A stretch of DNA of 64,000 bases from contig JAKQNO010000070.1 of NCBI GenBank assembly GCA_029565735.1, positions 22,542-86,541 of the forward strand, written 5' to 3'. Shown here in pieces: positions 5,137 through 52,763 of this stretch (position 1 is the stretch's first letter; each line of letters starts with the position of its first letter). This stretch comes from a bacterium (GTDB lineage Bacteria > Oederibacteriota > PGYV01). The notes beneath the pieces were generated by a model. The model saw only the letters and a program-made list of their open reading frames with translations, was not told the DNA's origin and made no database searches. Both the position numbers and the translations under genes were made by a program.

Positions 5137-5712
5137 ATGATGAAAGCAAAAAGTGTGTTGTTTTTGGTAATTTTCTCGGTTTTTGCGGCAGCTGTTTTTG
5201 CGGGTGTGACTGAAAATGCGGAAGGCGGATTCAAAGGTTCTGTAACTGAAAAGGTGGAAAAATTAATGGCCACCAATCAGGACACGGAGCGGACCTACTA
5301 TCCAAGGGATATGAGGCCGAATGACATCGCGATTGTGGGCGGAATGCCTTTAATCGCCGGAGTTGCTTACGGCTACAACATCAACCCAAACTTCCAGATA
5401 GCCCTTGGCGCCGGAGCGTTCTTTCCGGGAATCACGGCTGACTTATCAGTAAAATGGTTCTTTATGCCTACTACTATTACCCCTTACATCGCGGCGGGTA
5501 TGACTTACGTCGGCGCGCTTGACAAGACGGTTATGGCAGGGCATTTTGACGCGGGTGTTGACGTGGCGCTGGAAAACGCGCTTGGCATAAGCCTTGGAAT
5601 GGTTTACATGAGAAGTTTTTCGGATATGGCAGACCCGTTTGACACGGCGTGGGGCGAAACAAACAAGATAGACAACCTTGGGCTTCAGGGCGGAATTCAC
5701 TTCAGGTTTTAA
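5137..5712 (+). CDS. Small outer-membrane beta-barrel protein
   Basis: RBS AAGGAGGG lies 8 nt before ATG 5137 (the ORF-track start 5095 has no RBS). Signal peptide MMKAKSVLFLVIFSVFAAAVFAG. Alternating hydrophobic strands and a C-terminal ...HFRF aromatic end. Confidence 0.55.
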   Translation: MMKAKSVLFLVIFSVFAAAVFAGVTENAEGGFKGSVTEKVEKLMATNQDTERTYYPRDMRPNDIAIVGGMPLIAGVAYGYNINPNFQIALGAGAFFPGITADLSVKWFFMPTTITPYIAAGMTYVGALDKTVMAGHFDAGVDVALENALGISLGMVYMRSFSDMADPFDTAWGETNKIDNLGLQGGIHFRF

Positions 5713-24303: not shown

Positions 24304-24603
24304 GGTAGACGCGGGTCTTTAGCCCGCGGCAGTTTTTTAGATTCAATGTTTTTACGACTTAAAAGTGTTGGGGGTAAGTTCAGAAGAACCTGTTAACAAG
24401 AAAGTTGTTTAAATAAAATTGAAGTATATTCGTTCAAACTCTGTTATTGATGTTTTTTTGTTTTTGTAGGGGACGTGCTCCTGCGCGTCCCGCGGAATTT
24501 TCAAGTCTCCAATACTTTAATCATTTAAACTTTATTTTAATACTTATGATTATAAAGCACTATATCCGAATCAAATGCCGCGGGCTAAAGACCCGCGTCT
24601 ACC
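24304..24603. mobile_element. MITE-like non-coding element with 28-bp perfect terminal inverted repeats
   Basis: Left arm GGTAGACGCGGGTCTTTAGCCCGCGGCA (24304-24331) is the exact reverse complement of 24576-24603. The roughly 244-bp AT-rich core has no ORF and carries an internal hairpin GGGACG-TGCTCCTG-CGTCCC. A related solo arm lies at 49081-49107. Confidence 0.6.
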
Positions 24604-25564: not shown

Positions 25565-25666
25565 GCAATCCTCCTTAGTTATGATTTGATTTTAGAATAT
25601 AATCTTTTATTTGTCAAACATTCCTGATAATATAAACATATGCCACATTTGGCGGAGGGTTAAAGC

Positions 25667-25888
25667 TTGCGGTTAAAGCTTGCGGAGAAAACTAGGGAGA
25701 AAACTAGGGAGAAAATATTAAGATTGCTTGCGGAAAATCCAAAAATTAACTCTGTTGAAATTTCGCAGGCGGCTAAAATAACAATTAAAGGCGTTGAGTG
25801 GAATCTGAAAAAACTTAAAGATGAAAGTGTTATTACTCGTATAGGCCCTGATAAAGGCGGTTGTTGGAAGGTTATAAAAAGCAAGTGA
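25667..25888 (+). pseudogene. 3' remnant of a Schlafen/AlbA_2-type regulator gene (only the C-terminal winged-helix tail is left)
   Basis: 'EKTREKTREKILRLLAENPKINSVEISQAAKITIKGVEWNLKKLKDESVITRIGPDKGGCWKVI' looks like the last ~70 aa of COG2865-type proteins. No upstream coding sequence. Short tandem duplications lie at the 5' edge. Confidence 0.45.
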
Positions 25889-26123
25889 CATCGCGTTTTT
25901 CAAGGCGATAAGTTTCTTGGATGGTAGACAGGAGATTGGGCGTAAAGAGCGTGTATTCGGGTGGTGGGTATAGTATTACTTTCTACTTTCAAGGCCCGGA
26001 ACCATTTTGATTTTGCTTTATTTTTGTTTTTTCGTAGCGGGAAAATAAAAATTAAATAGCAAGTATCCCCCCTCGTTTCTTAATTTACATAATTTGTTAT
26101 ACGCTAACTGTTTATTTAGATAC

Positions 26124-26163
26124 TTGACAAAATACCTCGGGGGGGGGGTATAGTAACTATAAT
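26124..26163 (+). promoter_or_regulatory. Promoter carrying a G10 homopolymer tract
   Basis: TTGACA at 26124-26129, G10 at 26139-26148, TATAGT at 26149-26154 (19-nt spacer), and an extra TATAAT at 26158-26163. RBS GGAGGG precedes ATG 26185. Confidence 0.5.
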
Positions 26164-26184
26164 AGATTAAAACAGGAGGGTATT

Positions 26185-28074
26185 ATGAAAAAGTTCATTA
26201 AACTTAGTTCGTTGATAATTCTATTTGTTTTACTGATTATTTCATGTACAAAAAAACGGAATAATCCCGTTGCTCCTTCAGATATTGTTACTAGCACGCC
26301 ACAAATAATAGTTGTCACGGGTACATATACAAATACTCCGACAATCACAGAGTCGTTGGTTATAACTTCTACAAATATTTATACTTTAACAAAAACAGCA
26401 ACATTAACACTTACCAAAACTGAATATATAAGCCCAACAATAACATTTACTTCATCATTAACTTCAACGCAGATATTAGCGGGTTCTTTTACATGCACAG
26501 AATCGGCAACAGATACAATAACGGTGGCACAAACACAAACTGCAACAACCACAAATACACAAACTCACGCAAGTACGTTTACTAATACAATGACAATTAC
26601 AGTAACTCCTACAAACACAAATGTTTCTTTCGGTGAAGGTAACGCAATAATCACTCCTACGCATGTTGAAGTTAACAGCACGGGAAATACTATGCAAATA
26701 GTTTATACTGCAGGAACAACAACGTGGGGAAGTTCACCAGGAGGAAGTTTAAAAATTATTATTCCTTCCGGTTGGAGCTCACCAAGCCTTACATCAACAG
26801 ATGCAGGTTACTTTACTGTTGCGGTAATTAATGGAGGCGTCCTGAAAAATACAAGTGTAAATGGGCAAGTTATAACTCTGAAAATTAGTGATTTATCTGC
26901 AAATGTGGGACAAGTAATTATTAACTATGGGGATAAAAGTAGCGGTGGCCCTGGAGCAACAGCACAAAATTCAGCTTCGATTGCAACGTTTGTTGTTGAA
27001 ACAACAACTAACGGAGATGTTACAACTGAAATTTTAAACAGTCCAACAGTTGATGTAAGTTGGATGCTTGTAGGAAATGCGGGATTTATGGGAAAACTGA
27101 ATACAACAAATTGGAACTCTTTTAAAATGTATAATGGTGTGCCATTTGTTGCATGCTCTGAAAGCGTGGCATCTAATAAAGTATCCGTAATGAAATATGA
27201 AAGTGGCAGCTGGCAATATGTTGGAACACAAGGGTTTTCTACTGGTGCGGCATCATTACATCATGGGGCGTTGGCGATTAATTCAAGCACAGGATCTCCA
27301 TACATAGTCTACTCGGATAGCTCGCTTTCAAACAAAGCGGTAGTTATGACATATACAGGCGTATCGTGGACTGCGGTTGGTAGTTCAAGTGGAATATCAG
27401 ATGGACAGGCTGTTTTTCCTACAATTTTTATTGATAATAATACACCTTATATTAGTTTTAAAGATGTTTTCAATTCAAATAAAGTTACTGTAATGAAATA
27501 TATATCAGGTTCGTGGCAAGTAGTTGGATCAAAGGGATTTTCTCCTGGAGTGCCTTATCAGATAACGGATTTATTTGTATATTCAGGTATTCCATATGTA
27601 AGTTATTTTGATGATACAACTTCAGAAGTTGTTGTTTTAAATTTTGTTGCGGGGTCTTGGCAGGTCGTTGGAATTCCTTTTGCAGGAAACAAAAGTAATT
27701 ATCCACCATTATATATAAACAATGGTATCCCTTACATTGCTTTTATTGAACCAAACAGTCCATATAATGTTTTTCTGATGAAATATGAAAGTGGTAGTTG
27801 GCAAAGTGTAGGTGCTATTGGATATCGAGGAAGTTATCCAGCTATTGCGTTTGATAATAATATTCCATATATTGTTTTTTCTGATCAAGCGATGTCGCTT
27901 GGAAAATTATCCGTTATGAAATATGAAAGTGGAAATTGGCAATTTCAAGGATTGCGAGGATTTACTGCAGACCAAGCGTTACTGCCTAATATAGTTATTT
28001 ATAATGGAACGCCTTATGTGTCATTTCAAGATGGAAATGTTAATTCGCAAATCTCAGTAATGAAGCTTGAATAG
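26185..28074 (+). CDS. Surface lipoprotein: Thr-rich T-x-T stalk, Ig-like middle domain and seven ~48-aa propeller-type repeats
   Basis: Lipobox LIISC|T. Residues ~22-145 are T-x-T rich. 27061-28071 encodes 7 tandem repeats with consensus W-Q-x-V-G..GF....(I/T)PY(I/V).F.D......(V/L)(S/V)VMKYESGS. Confidence 0.7.
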   Translation: MKKFIKLSSLIILFVLLIISCTKKRNNPVAPSDIVTSTPQIIVVTGTYTNTPTITESLVITSTNIYTLTKTATLTLTKTEYISPTITFTSSLTSTQILAGSFTCTESATDTITVAQTQTATTTNTQTHASTFTNTMTITVTPTNTNVSFGEGNAIITPTHVEVNSTGNTMQIVYTAGTTTWGSSPGGSLKIIIPSGWSSPSLTSTDAGYFTVAVINGGVLKNTSVNGQVITLKISDLSANVGQVIINYGDKSSGGPGATAQNSASIATFVVETTTNGDVTTEILNSPTVDVSWMLVGNAGFMGKLNTTNWNSFKMYNGVPFVACSESVASNKVSVMKYESGSWQYVGTQGFSTGAASLHHGALAINSSTGSPYIVYSDSSLSNKAVVMTYTGVSWTAVGSSSGISDGQAVFPTIFIDNNTPYISFKDVFNSNKVTVMKYISGSWQVVGSKGFSPGVPYQITDLFVYSGIPYVSYFDDTTSEVVVLNFVAGSWQVVGIPFAGNKSNYPPLYINNGIPYIAFIEPNSPYNVFLMKYESGSWQSVGAIGYRGSYPAIAFDNNIPYIVFSDQAMSLGKLSVMKYESGNWQFQGLRGFTADQALLPNIVIYNGTPYVSFQDGNVNSQISVMKLE

Positions 28075-28083
28075 GAGGTTTTT

Positions 28084-28302
28084 ATGAAGCTTACACAAAA
28101 GAATCTTAGTAATTATGTTTTGGCATGTGAACACTGTCCAGAAGATGAAGATAGGGTTAAATATAATTGGGAAGCGGTGGATGAATTTATTTACGGAAAT
28201 AATTTTAATAAAAAAGATTTTGAGTCTTTAATTTGTCCCAATTGTAAAACGCCATTACATAACGCTTCAGAAGTGGCTACGCAAATTAAAAAACAGCGAT
28301 AA
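28084..28302 (+). CDS. Small zinc-ribbon-like protein
   Basis: Strong RBS AGGAGG lies 9 nt after the upstream stop. Two CxxC pairs (CEHC, CPNC). Confidence 0.45.
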   Translation: MKLTQKNLSNYVLACEHCPEDEDRVKYNWEAVDEFIYGNNFNKKDFESLICPNCKTPLHNASEVATQIKKQR

Positions 28303-29661
28303 ATTTTTACGAATTTTAGATTTGATCAGTGTGTGTTCGATAAAGTGGTTACATTTTCATCCACCCTATTAAATAAAAAATACCCTGGAGGAGCCATACA
28401 AGGGTTTTAGGATAGGGTAGTCTCGAAGAGAGTACGATATCAAACCCCAGTGCAGATAAAAAATAACAAATAAATGTATTCCTGTCAATTATCGTAAATT
28501 CAAGGCAATGCATGATTAAAGGTGTGTATTCCGCGTGTCCCTTTTAGAATCCCTTCAGCAAAAAAGCATAGCCATTATGGATCTATCTTATTCCTACTTT
28601 TCCGCGTTTTGAATCCACAATATAATTGTTTTAAATCGTTGCATACAATCATTCAGTTTTGGGTTAAGGAGTTGAGACGCGTACTCGTTACTGCGTGATG
28701 TTTTTTTAATCTCAGTCGGAACTTTTAAAAAAAGGATTACTCTTTTCAATTTTGCCCGTTTTCGCGTGCTGGTTGTGGCGCACGATTTTGTGTGCGCTCC
28801 GATTTCATGACGCTGCGGGTAAAATAGCCGTCCACGTTAAAATCTCCACTACAAAATGTGTGACTATATCTTAAAACCTCAAGAGTTTTTGTGTTCCTTT
28901 GTGCGATTAAAGAAAGCACAGACCATTTCGCCTCTAATCTTCACTGTAATTTTGAAAGGTTAGGTTCGAAATTATGGCGAATTCAAAACGAACAGGAAGT
29001 TTCAGAAATGAAGAATTTTGAAATCGTCGGTATCAGACACGGCAAAAAAGTTTTAGTCTTTTCGTTTTTTGAAATATTTAAAGCAATCAATACATCATAA
29101 AGGTGTTTTAAAATGATAAAATTCTACATTTTGTATATATACCCATACCTTAACATAACAACGAAAAAGACACTTGAAGCCTATAAGGAACTTACAGTAA
29201 TACAGGTAGAAAAGGCTTTGTTTGAAACCCCAAGAACAAAAAACGTTTCAATTCATAAACACGCTTAAAGAAAATGTAACAGCATACGGAGGCGGAAATA
29301 TTAAACGGCGGTGAATATGTAAAAACTCAAGATGATGTTATCAGGTACTTTAACAGGATAAACAAGGGCGCTGATAAAGAAATAATTTCAACTATTTTTT
29401 AACGTAAAGAACAGAATTTTAGGAATTAAAGCAATATTGTCTTTATTGTTTTCGGTTTATTGGACTTGATGGGTATTATAAAGTTCAGGCGCTAATCCGG
29501 CCAAAAGAAGAATTGTCCATCCAAAATATCAAAATCCGGTATAAAGGGCAAATAAAGGTATGTTTTTAGTATTTTTTTAAGTATTTTTTGGGAATTTGAT
29601 ATACCAAAATAAAGCGCTTCTGTGATATACTCTCATATTATATGTATTTAAAGGAGGAATT

Positions 29662-31697: not shown

Positions 31698-32657
31698 ATG
31701 AAAATAAAGCGCTTTTTAACTTTAGTGCTGTCAGCAGCCCTTCCCGTATTTGTGTTCGCGGGCGGCGAAACAGGCGGCGATGTATTAAAAGTTGACGCGG
31801 GCAACAGGGCGTCCGGGATGGCCGGCGCTTATACGGCAGCCGGCGCCGGCGTTGAATCCATATTTTATAATCCCGCGGGAATGTCGTCTCTTTTAAAAAC
31901 CCAGTTTGTTTACAGCCACCTTTTTTCCTACGCTTCAATGGCCGTGGAGCAAATCTCTTTCGGGAAATACGTGGACACACCGCTTATAGAAGGGACCGCC
32001 GGGCTTTCAATACTTTACAGGCATATGCCTGCCATATCAAACGCCGATGCCAAAGACGCGCCGGTTGAATTTTATGATTTTGTGCTTGCAGGCGTTTTTG
32101 CCAATGACATGTACAGCCTTATAAGGGACGAATTTTACAAAAATCTGACTTTTGGAATAAACGCCAAGCTTATATTTGAAAACATAGGGATATACAAGGC
32201 CACCACTTACGCGGCTGACCTTGGAATAAAATACGCGTTTCCCGGCTCCGGGTTTGCGCTTGGCGCGGCAATTTTAAACGCGGGCGCGCCCATAAAAATA
32301 ATTTCCGAATCCGCGCCGCTTCCGTTAACGGCAAGAATCGGGGCGCGGTATCAGTTTGATTTTGACGCTGACAACCATCTTGACCTGGCCCTTGATTACA
32401 TACACGACTTTTACGATTATCCTCGCGCGGCTTTTGGGATTGAAGACAAACTTATAGACATGCTTTATTTAAGGCTTGGCATCAACGCGCCTTTTGATTC
32501 AAGGTCAGCGGCTTTTGCGGCGGCGGGTTTCGGCGTAAAAATAACGCAGTTTGAAGTTGATGTCACGCTTAACTACACATACAAGCCCGTGTTTATAAAC
32601 GGGTTTAACGTCATTGAATCAACGCATTCCGCCGGCATGACGGTGGATCTGCCGTAA
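31698..32657 (+). CDS. Outer-membrane beta-barrel, PorV/PorQ-like (FadL superfamily)
   Basis: Signal peptide. N-terminal 'GGDVLKVDAGNRASGMAGAYTAAGAGVESIFYNPAGMS'. Alternating beta-strand pattern to the C-terminus. Confidence 0.55.
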   Translation: MKIKRFLTLVLSAALPVFVFAGGETGGDVLKVDAGNRASGMAGAYTAAGAGVESIFYNPAGMSSLLKTQFVYSHLFSYASMAVEQISFGKYVDTPLIEGTAGLSILYRHMPAISNADAKDAPVEFYDFVLAGVFANDMYSLIRDEFYKNLTFGINAKLIFENIGIYKATTYAADLGIKYAFPGSGFALGAAILNAGAPIKIISESAPLPLTARIGARYQFDFDADNHLDLALDYIHDFYDYPRAAFGIEDKLIDMLYLRLGINAPFDSRSAAFAAAGFGVKITQFEVDVTLNYTYKPVFINGFNVIESTHSAGMTVDLP

Positions 32658-40510: not shown

Positions 40511-41266
40511 ATGATGAGACTGCAGCAATTCATAGCGCGCTGCGGGGTTACATCCCGCAGAAAAGCCGAAGAGTTAATGACACAGGGCAGGGTTACGGTT
40601 AACGGTAAATTTATACGCGAGCTTGGTTTTAAGGTTGACCCGGCAAAAGATGCGGTAAAGGTTGACGGCAAACTGCTGCGTAAAGAAAATCCCGTATATA
40701 TCCTGCTGAATAAACCGGAAGGGTGCGTGTGCACCGTGTCTGATGAAAAGGAAAGGCGCACTGTGCTTGACCTGCTGCCGGTAAATGTTGTTGATAAAGG
40801 AAGGCTGTACCCTGTGGGCAGGCTTGATTATAACACCACGGGCTGCCTGTTTCTTACAAATGACGGCGACTGGGCCAACAGGATAACCCATCCAAAATAT
40901 AAAGTTGATAAAGTGTACATGGTAAAATTGAAAGGCAGGGCCGACGCAAAGCAGCTGGAACGCCTGAAAAGGGGGGTAACCGTTGACGGCGTCTATGTAA
41001 AGGCAAAGGAAGCTGCCCCTATATTTAAAAACGAACAAAATGACGTTTTAAGAATGGTGATTACACAGGGCCTGAACCATCAGGTAAAAAATATGTGCGC
41101 CGCGGTGGGATTAAGCGTTGTAAGGCTTAAACGCGAAAGCGTGGGCAAAGTAAGCATAGCGGGGATGAAACCCGGTGAATTCAGGTATCTTACCAGGGCG
41201 GAAATTGATTCGTTTGCACCCTTAAAAAAAGAGGTGAAGCCGCGTGAAAACAAAAAAAGACCTTAA
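40511..41266 (+). CDS. rluB: Pseudouridine synthase, RsuA/RluB family
   Basis: S4 domain followed by GRLDYNTTG. Confidence 0.85.
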   Translation: MMRLQQFIARCGVTSRRKAEELMTQGRVTVNGKFIRELGFKVDPAKDAVKVDGKLLRKENPVYILLNKPEGCVCTVSDEKERRTVLDLLPVNVVDKGRLYPVGRLDYNTTGCLFLTNDGDWANRITHPKYKVDKVYMVKLKGRADAKQLERLKRGVTVDGVYVKAKEAAPIFKNEQNDVLRMVITQGLNHQVKNMCAAVGLSVVRLKRESVGKVSIAGMKPGEFRYLTRAEIDSFAPLKKEVKPRENKKRP

Positions 41267-46400: not shown

Positions 46401-47277
46401 GCCTGATGTATTTCCTTCCGCCGGGCTTGGCGTAAATTTATACGCTGATTCCGGTTCGCCCGTGTATCACGAAGAGGATGTTAACGGATTTACAGGGCTG
46501 CGTTTTTATGTAAAGGGCGACGGCACGCAATACACGCTAAGGCTGCCATACATAAATGTTACGGACGGCTCCACCCTGACCGGGTATAACGACTACAAGT
46601 ACATTTTTACGGCTCCGGCGGCGTGGACGCTTATGGAAATACCTTTTTCTTCTTTTACCCAGGAATCAGGATGGGGCACGCAATACCCTTTATCCACGGT
46701 GCTTGCGCATGTAAAGGCGGTGCAGTGGCAGGTGCTTGAATATGGAAGGGCGTTTGACCTTTACGTGGATGATGCGGGGTTTTACAATGCGCCGCCGCCT
46801 TTTACTTTTACCCCGACCGTTACGCTGACCGCGACGCCGACGATATATTTAAGCAGGACTTCAACTGTGACTGTAACTTCCACGCGTACAATTACCGCGA
46901 CGCGGACCGCTGTGATTCCTTCGCCCACTTTAACTGTCACTATCACTGTCACTGTCACTGTCACAAATACGCCGACACCCGGCGTGCGGGCCGCGTATAA
47001 CCTGGATGATGTTTATGTTTACCCGTCGGTCTATGACGGCGCTGACGGGCAAAAAGGAATAATGTTTTTAAGGCTTACGCGCAAATCGGGAATTCAGATA
47101 TTCAATATTAAAGGGGAACTTGTGCATTATGCGCGTGTTGATTCCGCTGAGGGGGAATACCTGTGGAAGCTTGAAGGCGTAAGAAAAAACAACAAACCCG
47201 CGCCCGGAATATATATTTACGTCATTACGGCGGATGACGGCGCTGTGAAAAAAGGAAAGCTGGCGATAGTAAAGTAA
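43450..47277 (+). CDS. Large secreted clan GH-A (GH5-like) glycoside hydrolase with CBM-like domains, T-x-T linkers and a T9SS-type C-terminal sorting domain
   Basis: Signal peptide. TIM-barrel motifs 'INLVRFH', acid/base 'VEVCNEHG', nucleophile 'FTVTEYNH'. CBM4_9-like 'LLNGDFASGLTGW'. Second CBM-like 'WKIDDCEDGNNQN'. CTD at 47011-47274 ends LAIVK. Confidence 0.7.
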   Translation: MKKFLIFAVIFFTVSRLYAGMFNFTLPWDDDSASVTDLSYLNHKPAGVSGYVTAAPDGHLYVNSGASRIKFLAVNVTSTNCFPAKEDADKIARRMAKYGINLVRFHLGDASWGQSFIDYSGYADSRHLNASNLDKFDYFVSKLKEHGIYSNINLLAGRDFKSADGLPASIDSMAWKDKQTPAMFSPAMLDLQKEFALNMLDRVNPYTGLKYTQDPSVVFVEVCNEHGLIHAWHNAQIDVLPAEFEAQLQGMWDAYLAAKYPSFAALQGAWGMSAPLGDEKLLNGDFASGLTGWGRETNSPASAVFTVIADGLAPGKNSCQVNVSASSTINWHVQLNQAVTLTAGSPYTLSFSAKADKNATVDVVVQEVNGAWQTYFTKTLNLTDQWQRFEFVFAATNTTISARVNFTDMAKAIAVYSFADVSFRQGGIIPGTNADETDFNSVKIFKAADRADRTGAAKDDWVDFLWKKEEHYWGSMNNYVKVSLSAKALTVGTVIGNSTPNLMNLFDVIDSHAYWQHPSYAGEQWVSPWWVNNSSVLSKSDGGTISGLSVKRVEGKPFTVTEYNHPFPNSFNAEAYGILGAYASFQDWDAIYGYTYGDGNTNWSISKLDGFFDIDMDPGKWANMLHAALMFRRGDISAAVSKVTVPITTAQELGLLTGAGPWRLIDAQDAGMPPAASLMHRISIIAEGGTNPAGALSPADITLPGTGIYTSDTNQLNWDSSARVLKIDSPKTKGVIGNNTGVEYNLSGVIIRPLSSMQNWSSIMMSVAQGGTFASGAEKIFITAAGFSSNTGVNYRLYPSGASAGFPPAANADINTSSFGSGPTITEGIGAEFVLPYPSANVKVYSLDNTGARILSLPVSDESGNAKFQISDAHKTLWYEAEIYPGPAPTDTYTLTPTATRTPGGPTDTVTPTVTLTATVSEWKIDDCEDGNNQNLLGGYWYNYADSLSVINPPKGSAFTMASGGAQTPLYSARIYGNIAAQPSPDVFPSAGLGVNLYADSGSPVYHEEDVNGFTGLRFYVKGDGTQYTLRLPYINVTDGSTLTGYNDYKYIFTAPAAWTLMEIPFSSFTQESGWGTQYPLSTVLAHVKAVQWQVLEYGRAFDLYVDDAGFYNAPPPFTFTPTVTLTATPTIYLSRTSTVTVTSTRTITATRTAVIPSPTLTVTITVTVTVTNTPTPGVRAAYNLDDVYVYPSVYDGADGQKGIMFLRLTRKSGIQIFNIKGELVHYARVDSAEGEYLWKLEGVRKNNKPAPGIYIYVITADDGAVKKGKLAIVK

Positions 47278-47298
47278 GGGTGTAAAGCTTAAGCAATA

Positions 47299-47477
47299 AG
47301 CTGATAAGCAGTTAAGCATAAGCGGAAGGATAAAACATAGCAAATTACGCTGATAAGCAGTTAAGCATAAGCGAAAGAATAAAACATAGCAGATTAAGCA
47401 GATAAGCAATTAAGCTATAGCGAAAAATTGCCTTTAAGTTTTCGCTTATGCTTATTGCTTAACTGCCTATAGCTTAA
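47299..47477. repeat. TAAGC-rich intergenic repeat module (2.6 tandem 49-bp units plus a long imperfect hairpin)
   Basis: Units 47299-47347 and 47348-47396 differ at 4 of 49 positions. 47413-47477 is ~90% identical to 52639-52703. Confidence 0.8.
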
Positions 47478-47488
47478 ATTTTTATTCT

Positions 47489-47536
47489 TCTGACCCTCTG
47501 ACCCTCTGACCTTCCGACCTTCTGACCTTCTGAGCT
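47489..47536. repeat. Octamer tandem array (TCTGACCY x6) abutting the lemA promoter
   Basis: Reads tctgaccc tctgaccc tctgacct tccgacct tctgacct tctgagct. An extended -10 TGgTATAAT lies at 47548-47556. Confidence 0.85.
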
Positions 47537-47584
47537 GCCTTCATTTATGGTATAATACTTTCAATCAAAAAACGGAGGTGCAAT

Positions 47585-52548: not shown

Positions 52549-52638
52549 TCAATAGCGGTGGTCCGGCAGCTAAGCAGTTGGGTTTGGATATGGCAGGCGC
52601 GGATTTTAAACAAGAGCGGATTAAGCTATAAGCATTTA

Positions 52639-52748
52639 AGCTATAGCGGTATATTGCCTTTAAGTTTTCGCTTATGCTTATTGCTTAACTGCTTATAGCT
52701 TAAGTTTTTCCTTCCGTCCCTCTGTCCCTCCGTGCATCCGTCCCTCAG
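52639..52748. repeat. Second copy of the TAAGC hairpin module plus octamer array
   Basis: 52639-52703 matches 47413-47477, including a 41-nt identical core attgcctttaagttttcgcttatgcttattgcttaactgc. Octamer array at 52713-52748. Confidence 0.8.
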
Positions 52749-52763
52749 TTTTTATTCGATTAT

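Follow-up and report, generated by a model that had tools for sequence, protein, structure and literature searches.

A run of ten G residues in the promoter of a lipoprotein gene differs in length among related assemblies, and we propose, with a rough probability of 0.55, that it works as a slipped-strand contingency element within a sigma-70-type promoter spacer (TTGACA-N18/19/20-TATAGT). The locus belongs to uncultivated Goldbacteria, to judge by the protein clusters of the neighbouring RibF and amine oxidase, whose members come from MAGs named Candidatus Goldiibacteriota, and lies in the window, by which we mean the whole 64-kb stretch of DNA that was analysed; the coordinates of its features are collected in Table 1. 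An earlier note, made from the letters of the window, had described the tract as a candidate phase-variation switch, and the length variation among relatives, together with the canonical promoter context, supports that description. The mechanism is a textbook one. What sets the locus apart is its host, a candidate phylum that is uncultivated and probably free-living, together with the population-genomic picture; our literature search found no paper linking Goldbacteria with phase variation.

Direct reading of the promoter region places the hexamers, the spacer and the G run exactly, base for base, where the earlier note had put them, and it also confirms the second, perfect TATAAT downstream. 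TTGACA and TATAGT together match the consensus at 11 of 12 positions, with the -10 ending 31 nt before the lipoprotein ATG, and the 3' end of the tract lies 36 nt before the same codon. We infer that this pair is the promoter that drives the lipoprotein gene. The downstream TATAAT might serve as a promoter that needs no -35 and is indifferent to the tract; no -35-like hexamer is present 16-18 nt upstream of it, where the sequence reads ACCTCG, CCTCGG or CTCGGG instead.

Table 1. Positions of the features in the window, predicted domains of the lipoprotein (residue numbers) and tract alleles in the assemblies that span the tract.
Feature	Position	Strand	Remarks
Low-GC island, 4,035 nt	25588-29622	.	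Between divergent GGDEF and amine-oxidase genes
73-aa winged-helix (HTH_24) ORF	25667-25888	+	Left end of the island; PF13412, E = 5.6e-10
17/19 copy of tract plus -10, TCGGGTGGTGGGTATAGTA	25957-25975	+	Compared with TCGGGGGGGGGGTATAGTA (26137-26155)
-35 hexamer TTGACA	26124-26129	+	6/6 consensus; read directly
Promoter spacer, 19 nt	26130-26148	+	Last ten bases are the uninterrupted G run
G10 homopolymer	26139-26148	+	3' half of the spacer; variable element (G9/G10/G11 elsewhere)
-10 hexamer TATAGT	26149-26154	+	5/6 consensus
Second -10-like hexamer TATAAT	26158-26163	+	6/6 consensus; 3 nt downstream of TATAGT
Ribosome-binding site AGGAGGG	26174-26180	+	AGGAGG at 26174-26179; read directly
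Lipoprotein ATG	26185	+	Read directly
629-aa lipoprotein gene	26185-28074	+	ORF; intact in the window
Target site AAG of IS3-like element	26730-26732	+	Duplicated (3 bp); junctions in other assemblies
72-aa CxxC...CxxC ORF (zinc-ribbon)	28084-28302	+	9 nt past the lipoprotein stop; own GGAGG
Predicted signal helix	residues 3-19		AlphaFold
Thr-rich disordered linker, 128 residues	residues 20-147		AlphaFold; low confidence
Predicted beta-sandwich	residues 150-295		AlphaFold
Predicted seven-blade beta-propeller	residues 300-629		AlphaFold
G9 allele, 5 of 13 assemblies			L003, L004, L005, L006, L007 (JGI 3300010351; GCA_029554825.1; ERZ795063; JGI 3300009682; ERZ27257409)
G10 allele, 6 of 13 assemblies			Window, L002, L010, L014, L019, L063 (ERZ27257431, the window's own; SRR29782965; GCA_035443785.1; ERZ795059; JGI 3300009782; SRR4244858)
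G11 allele, 2 of 13 assemblies			L065, L066 (JGI 3300009783; JGI 3300009780)

Promoter usage in this lineage was assessed by scanning the window for TTGACA-N16-19-TATAAT with a threshold of at least 11 of 12 matches. Nine matches were found, eight of them intergenic, although intergenic DNA makes up only 12% of the window; six of these eight, the lipoprotein promoter included, stand 25-63 nt upstream of a start codon on the same strand. The spacers of the other five promoters in this set measure 16-17 nt, except for one of 19 nt. At the GGDEF and FG-GAP genes, the TTGACA, the -10 and the 17-nt distance between them are kept in a sister species (L060, GCA_016937715.1, ~80% identical at the DNA level), while the sequence of the spacer has diverged. 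The intergenic placement and the conservation in the sister species argue that canonical sigma-70 promoters, with an optimum of 17 nt, are in use in this lineage. Judged by its hexamers and position, the putative lipoprotein promoter fits this pattern apart from its overlong spacer.

The tract is exceptional in its surroundings. The claim that it is the longest G/C homopolymer in the 64 kb is borne out: no other G/C run exceeds 6 nt, and the runners-up are three 6-mers (C6 at 26067, C6 at 343 and G6 at 40971). Counts of G/C runs in the window drop ~6.4-fold with each added base, and the expected number of runs of at least 10 nt per 64 kb is 0.002 when this decay is extrapolated, 0.05 under an iid model and 0.17 under a first-order Markov model. 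In 250 kb of metagenomic loci encoding distant homologues of the lipoprotein, G/C runs of at least 9 nt are absent. A pure G10 run is above the length of about 8 nt from which a repeat can slip.

Other roles of the tract were considered and rejected. It is not part of a coding sequence, as no ATG, GTG or TTG follows in frame after the TGA at 26125 that closes the upstream frame. Translational (frameshift) phase variation requires an intragenic repeat, and the tract lies outside the reading frame, 5' of the start codon. For an inverton or a hairpin, the sole candidate arms are the C6 at 26067 and the G10 run, whose fold is no better than that of shuffled sequences (z = 0.46); the island holds no recombinase ORF, and the orientation is identical in every assembly.

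Relatives of the locus were gathered by exact-protein look-ups with the lipoprotein, the 73-aa HTH ORF and the 72-aa ORF, a procedure that biases the sample towards identical alleles. A search with the promoter pattern and a variable G run gave no match in metagenome and genome contig collections, neither of which contains this locus. Thirteen assemblies, counted as independent although the assemblies and MAGs may partly reuse the same raw data, span the tract completely when the window is included. The earlier note had set an invariant tract among relatives beforehand as the refuting observation; what we find on near-identical flanks is G9, G10 and G11, corresponding to spacers of 18, 19 and 20 nt. 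The SRR4244858 contig, counted as G10, starts with exactly ten G. In two further contigs the length is uninformative: the one from ERZ27257483 stops inside the tract, and L012 (ERZ795056, 2.9x coverage) reads it as GGGCGGGGGTA. The note had also proposed that loss of one or two G would restore a spacer of 17-18 nt. The 18-nt half of that proposal stands, with G9 in five assemblies, whereas the 'optimal' 17-nt spacer of a G8 allele occurs in none of the 13.

Among the tract-bearing contigs compared, the tract is the sole indel in 3.5-4 kb of island, and substitutions are found at five sites only (25773, 26175, 26193, 26221 and 26370). The 18 other island homopolymers of 6-7 nt, including the C6 that lies 66 nt upstream of the tract, show no change in length. 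G9 is found with both 26370T and 26370C, and the 26370T background carries G9 and G10 alike, beside differing flank haplotypes. Tract length is thus independent of SNP and flank haplotype, which implies recurrent changes. The contigs L013, L019 and L002 terminate within the tract or at its edge, a weak hint of length heterogeneity within samples. On the strength of these comparisons we regard the length polymorphism as very probably real.

In some populations the lipoprotein gene carries further, independent lesions. Codon 183 is interrupted in four JGI contigs by an IS3-like element with an rve_3 transposase and the ends TATGATGG...CCATCATA; the right junction is seen in L018 (1-265) and L023 (1-261), and the left junction in L065 (1940-2045) and L066 (1440-1558). 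The contigs of L008, L009, L020 and L063 break exactly at the target point, and the window itself contains no copy of this element. Both G11 alleles reside on IS-disrupted copies, so that drift after inactivation accounts for them as well as switching does. A different lesion is the substitution 26175 G>A (AGGAGG>AAGAGG), which should weaken the ribosome-binding site and is linked to 26193 G>T (K3N, in the n-region of the signal peptide) in L012 and L065. Since the two variants of L012 recur in L065, an independent JGI contig, they are real. As read from these alleles, the population appears to lower or abolish the lipoprotein by at least three routes (tract, IS and RBS), which is expected of an envelope component that is sometimes a liability.

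In the mechanism that we propose, replication slippage in the G run would add or remove one G, and each such change would shift the distance between -35 and -10 by 1 bp and their relative rotation by ~35 degrees. The spacer states of G9, G10 and G11, and presumably one of 17 nt for G8, would alter promoter strength, which would in turn set the level of a two-gene transcript carrying the lipoprotein gene and the small zinc-ribbon ORF. The population would always be mixed, with higher transcription in G9 cells (and in G8 cells, if these occur) and lower transcription in G10 and G11 cells. Expression would then depend on tract length, and switching is expected to be fast and reversible. The start site predicted for this promoter is at about 26161, roughly 7 nt past TATAGT. 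As no G8 allele turned up, the range among the observed states may be no wider than from 'moderate' to 'low'.

We suggest only tentatively, and with more doubt than confidence, that this is a true contingency locus of free-living, uncultivated Goldbacteria, by which a lectin-like propeller lipoprotein on a recently acquired island is kept heterogeneous. As every run of G9-11 is hypermutable and the island seems to be a recent one, selection need not have preserved the tract. If the suggestion is true, the poly-G switch together with the IS and RBS lesions would be the trace of fluctuating selection on a surface receptor, for instance by phage or predators in engineered anaerobic communities, and repeat-based phase variation would extend beyond host-adapted pathogens and be readable directly from metagenomes. 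A varying poly-G in a promoter spacer of uncultivated Goldbacteria suggests that the same bet-hedging device operates in environmental consortia, and the locus allows switching to be measured from existing read sets. The acquired island, the IS knock-outs and the RBS mutation would show that strong and changing selection acts on one envelope protein, so that the locus offers a starting point in the search for phage receptors or adhesion factors of a phylum without a cultured model.

Nearly all work on repeat-mediated phase variation comes from host-restricted pathogens such as Neisseria, Haemophilus, Campylobacter, Helicobacter, Treponema and Mycoplasma. The vlp genes of Mycoplasma hyorhinis have a poly-A spacer, fim2 and fim3 of Bordetella pertussis a poly-C tract, and hifA/B of Haemophilus influenzae TA repeats; in these systems, graded or on/off transcription results from repeats that lie within the promoter spacer, or beside it, at genes for surface lipoproteins or fimbriae. 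They differ from the Goldbacteria locus in repeat type, in their regulators (BvgA for fim) and in their multigene families, whereas the Goldbacteria gene is single-copy on its island.

In N. meningitidis porA a poly-G tract lies between -35 and -10 (PMC7864442), and in N. gonorrhoeae fetA/frpB a poly-C tract occupies the same place (PMC5320596). Like the Goldbacteria promoter, these have a G/C homopolymer in the sigma-70 spacer of an envelope gene, the length of which sets the distance between -35 and -10 and differs between strains. For porA and fetA, however, the start site was mapped and expression measured for each length, whereas the Goldbacteria locus is known from sequence alone; their hosts are host-restricted pathogens with dozens of such loci, in contrast to one tract in 64 kb here, and the proteins are unrelated to the Goldbacteria lipoprotein. 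T. pallidum tp0126, which encodes an OmpW homologue, has a poly-G between -35 and -10 with an optimum of 17 nt (PMC7864442), and the tract of tprL is mostly G9 with a range of G7-G11, G8 being active and G10 near background (PMC7864442). The T. pallidum tracts (tp0126, tprL / tprE,G,J) and the present one have nearly equal lengths, with modal G9-G10 and rarer neighbours. The tract of tprL differs in that it ends 4 nt before the start site and does not lie in the spacer, and fragment analysis has demonstrated variation inside clonal isolates of T. pallidum, whereas here it is seen among assemblies.

The tract might instead be hypermutable yet functionally neutral, having come with, or arisen in, a recently acquired AT-rich island, either because output is insensitive to spacings of 18-20 nt or because transcription starts from the TATAAT. 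We consider this rather unlikely. The youth of the island, which the sister species lacks and in which hardly any diversity is seen among window-type alleles, is compatible with neutrality, as are the absence of G8 from the sample, the homologues elsewhere that lack the tract and the confinement of G11 to IS-disrupted copies; against these points, a pure G10 exactly in a promoter spacer would be an unlikely accident where the other G/C runs do not exceed 6 nt. A perfect TATAAT directly downstream offers a start site that would bypass the tract, but it has no usable -35, whereas TTGACA/TATAGT matches at 11 of 12 positions and is positioned like the other promoters of the window. Insensitivity to the spacing is also hard to reconcile with tested systems, in which 1-bp spacer shifts off 17 nt strongly alter activity (PMC7864442).

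That the tract forms part of an operator, for example for the 73-aa winged-helix protein, with its length tuning binding or looping as has been proposed for opc or nadA, seems improbable. Such a reading could draw on the 17/19 repeat of the tract and -10, in which the two elements TCGGGTGGTGGGTATAGTA and TCGGGGGGGGGGTATAGTA are 180 nt apart, but a single two-copy repeat is weak evidence (by our own estimate the chance expectation is roughly 0.05) and lacks dyad symmetry. The upstream copy has its G run broken by two T's and no -35 in front of it, the repeat amounts to two copies of TCGGGKGGKGGGTATAGTA, and the upstream element may be either a duplicate in decay or another regulator site. The HTH_24 gene is the immediate upstream neighbour on the island, but its ORF, which is very short, could be a remnant, and nothing ties the protein to the site. 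Tracts overlapping a regulator site do have precedents (PMC7864442, PMC2791445); an operator would be compatible with the spacing mechanism and does not exclude it.

Very improbable, finally, is that the variation is an artefact of sequencing and assembly, with a fixed true length blurred by Illumina or PCR errors and assembler choices: the low stated coverage of several contigs (2.5-5x; L005, L012 and L014), the garbled tract of L012, which makes sequencing error possible at this site, and the contigs that end in or at the tract would be in line with it, but a split of 5:6:2 over 13 assemblies is impossible from a per-read error of a few percent and hence not explicable by misreading of a fixed tract, no other island homopolymer has an indel in any contig, and the 26175 and 26193 differences of the low-coverage contig L012 recur in L065. 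Identical pipelines moreover yield differing lengths in sister samples: the ERZ272574xx assemblies, from one project and pipeline, give G10, G9 and one contig break, the ERZ7950xx assemblies G10 and G9, and the JGI Ga01161xx-2xx series G9, G10 and G11.

The location of the lipoprotein gene in a low-GC island, as had been claimed, is borne out by a GC content of 35.2%, as against 45.2% for the rest of the window, and by an empty site in a sister Goldbacteria species (L060, L061 and L062), where the GGDEF and amine-oxidase genes are 170 nt apart. The island comprises the 73-aa winged-helix ORF, the lipoprotein gene, the 72-aa zinc-ribbon ORF and 1.36 kb without a convincing gene. The right flank of L002 is 4.5% diverged from the window and the left flank of L004 14%, while the island is identical in both, and the divergence begins at 25578 and 29634, within about 10 nt of the island edges. 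An identical island on diverged flanks indicates that the island, or this allele of it, moved between backgrounds by recombination. A second island allele, ~96% identical to the window, was found in L068 and L069 (samples ERZ28596294 and ERZ24910825), neither of which reaches the promoter; the island is therefore not globally monomorphic. A search for variant alleles with the N-terminal 186 residues of the lipoprotein gave no match. That the sister species lacks the island and that window-type alleles are almost uniform suggests that the island is young. It carries no integrase, tRNA or terminal direct repeats (the window as a whole has no tRNA), and a scan of viral contigs revealed no relative of it and hence no sign of phage origin. 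A scan of genome contigs with the amine oxidase recovered only distant relatives.

The 73-aa HTH ORF is a possible regulator or a gene remnant. Two perfect tandem repeats are present at its start (25658-25715), one with 2.2 copies of a 13-nt unit and one with 2.7 copies of a 12-nt unit; the latter encodes EKTREKTREK, and both are invariant in all assemblies seen. At the other end of the island, 28303-29661 contains no convincing ORF and no Rfam match at the gathering threshold, with matches at chance level for E up to 1; the ORFs that some assemblies have there measure just 51-69 aa. This region is identical among window-type alleles and is the most diverged part of the L068/L069 allele (3-4%, with several indels).

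The lipoprotein has an N-terminus MKKFIKLSSLIILFVLLIIS|C, with a signal peptide and lipobox (LIIS|C), and matches no Pfam family. An AlphaFold model built from a 13-sequence alignment has a mean pLDDT of 76.6, with values above 80 over residues 150-629. The lipobox and the predicted Thr-rich linker agree with the description of the gene product as a lipoprotein with a long stalk. The best fold matches in the PDB are propeller lectins (Photorhabdus PLL/PHL, AAL), the LGI1 EPTP domain and sialidase-like/GH propellers, at 8-18% identity; sequence homologues are 25-51% identical, and several have T9SS sorting, cadherin or FN3 domains. On the basis of the model, it is reasonable to see the lipoprotein as a binding protein held on a stalk away from the membrane, presumably exposed on the outer surface. 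The 72-aa zinc-ribbon ORF downstream is called in more than 20 contigs and, from its position, is probably co-transcribed with the lipoprotein gene.

A single-protein metagenome scan with the lipoprotein recovered an identical copy, truncated by the IS, besides 35 distant homologues (30-52% identity). None of these has a G/C run of at least 9 nt, and the paralogue locus L059 (ERZ25039512 contig_7, 82523-105279) is likewise without a tract. The latter encodes a 32%-identical homologue together with large Pfam-less proteins and three TMEM260_N/TPR proteins (glycosyltransferase-like), neighbours which hint that the Thr-rich linkers of the lipoprotein family are O-glycosylated.

Other features of the window lie outside the lipoprotein locus. 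A perfect 27-nt inverted repeat, GTAGACGCGGGTCTTTAGCCCGCGGCA, is present at 24307-24333 and 24576-24602 and flanks 242 nt between convergent genes. Each arm is itself a terminator-like hairpin, and the intergenic region exceeds that of the sister species by ~240 nt; the repeat could be a MITE-like insertion or a duplicated terminator. In L008 (GCA_035443785.1, DAOMNL010000004), positions 5213-5314 have 100 nt in place of 248 nt in the window (31942-32191). The difference lies inside a 319-aa ORF (31698-32657) and splits the gene in L008; either a gap in the scaffold or a true deletion may lie behind it. Two intergenic regions, 47270-47540 and 52620-52750, have in common a module of ~47 nt (gcctttaagttttcgcttatgcttattgcttaactgcYtatagcttaa). 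Upstream of it are AAGC-rich repeats, including a 49-nt unit at 2.6 copies, and after it come runs of 8-nt repeats (CTTCTGAC or TCCCTCCG) just upstream of promoters; the module with its repeats constitutes an unclassified repeated intergenic element.
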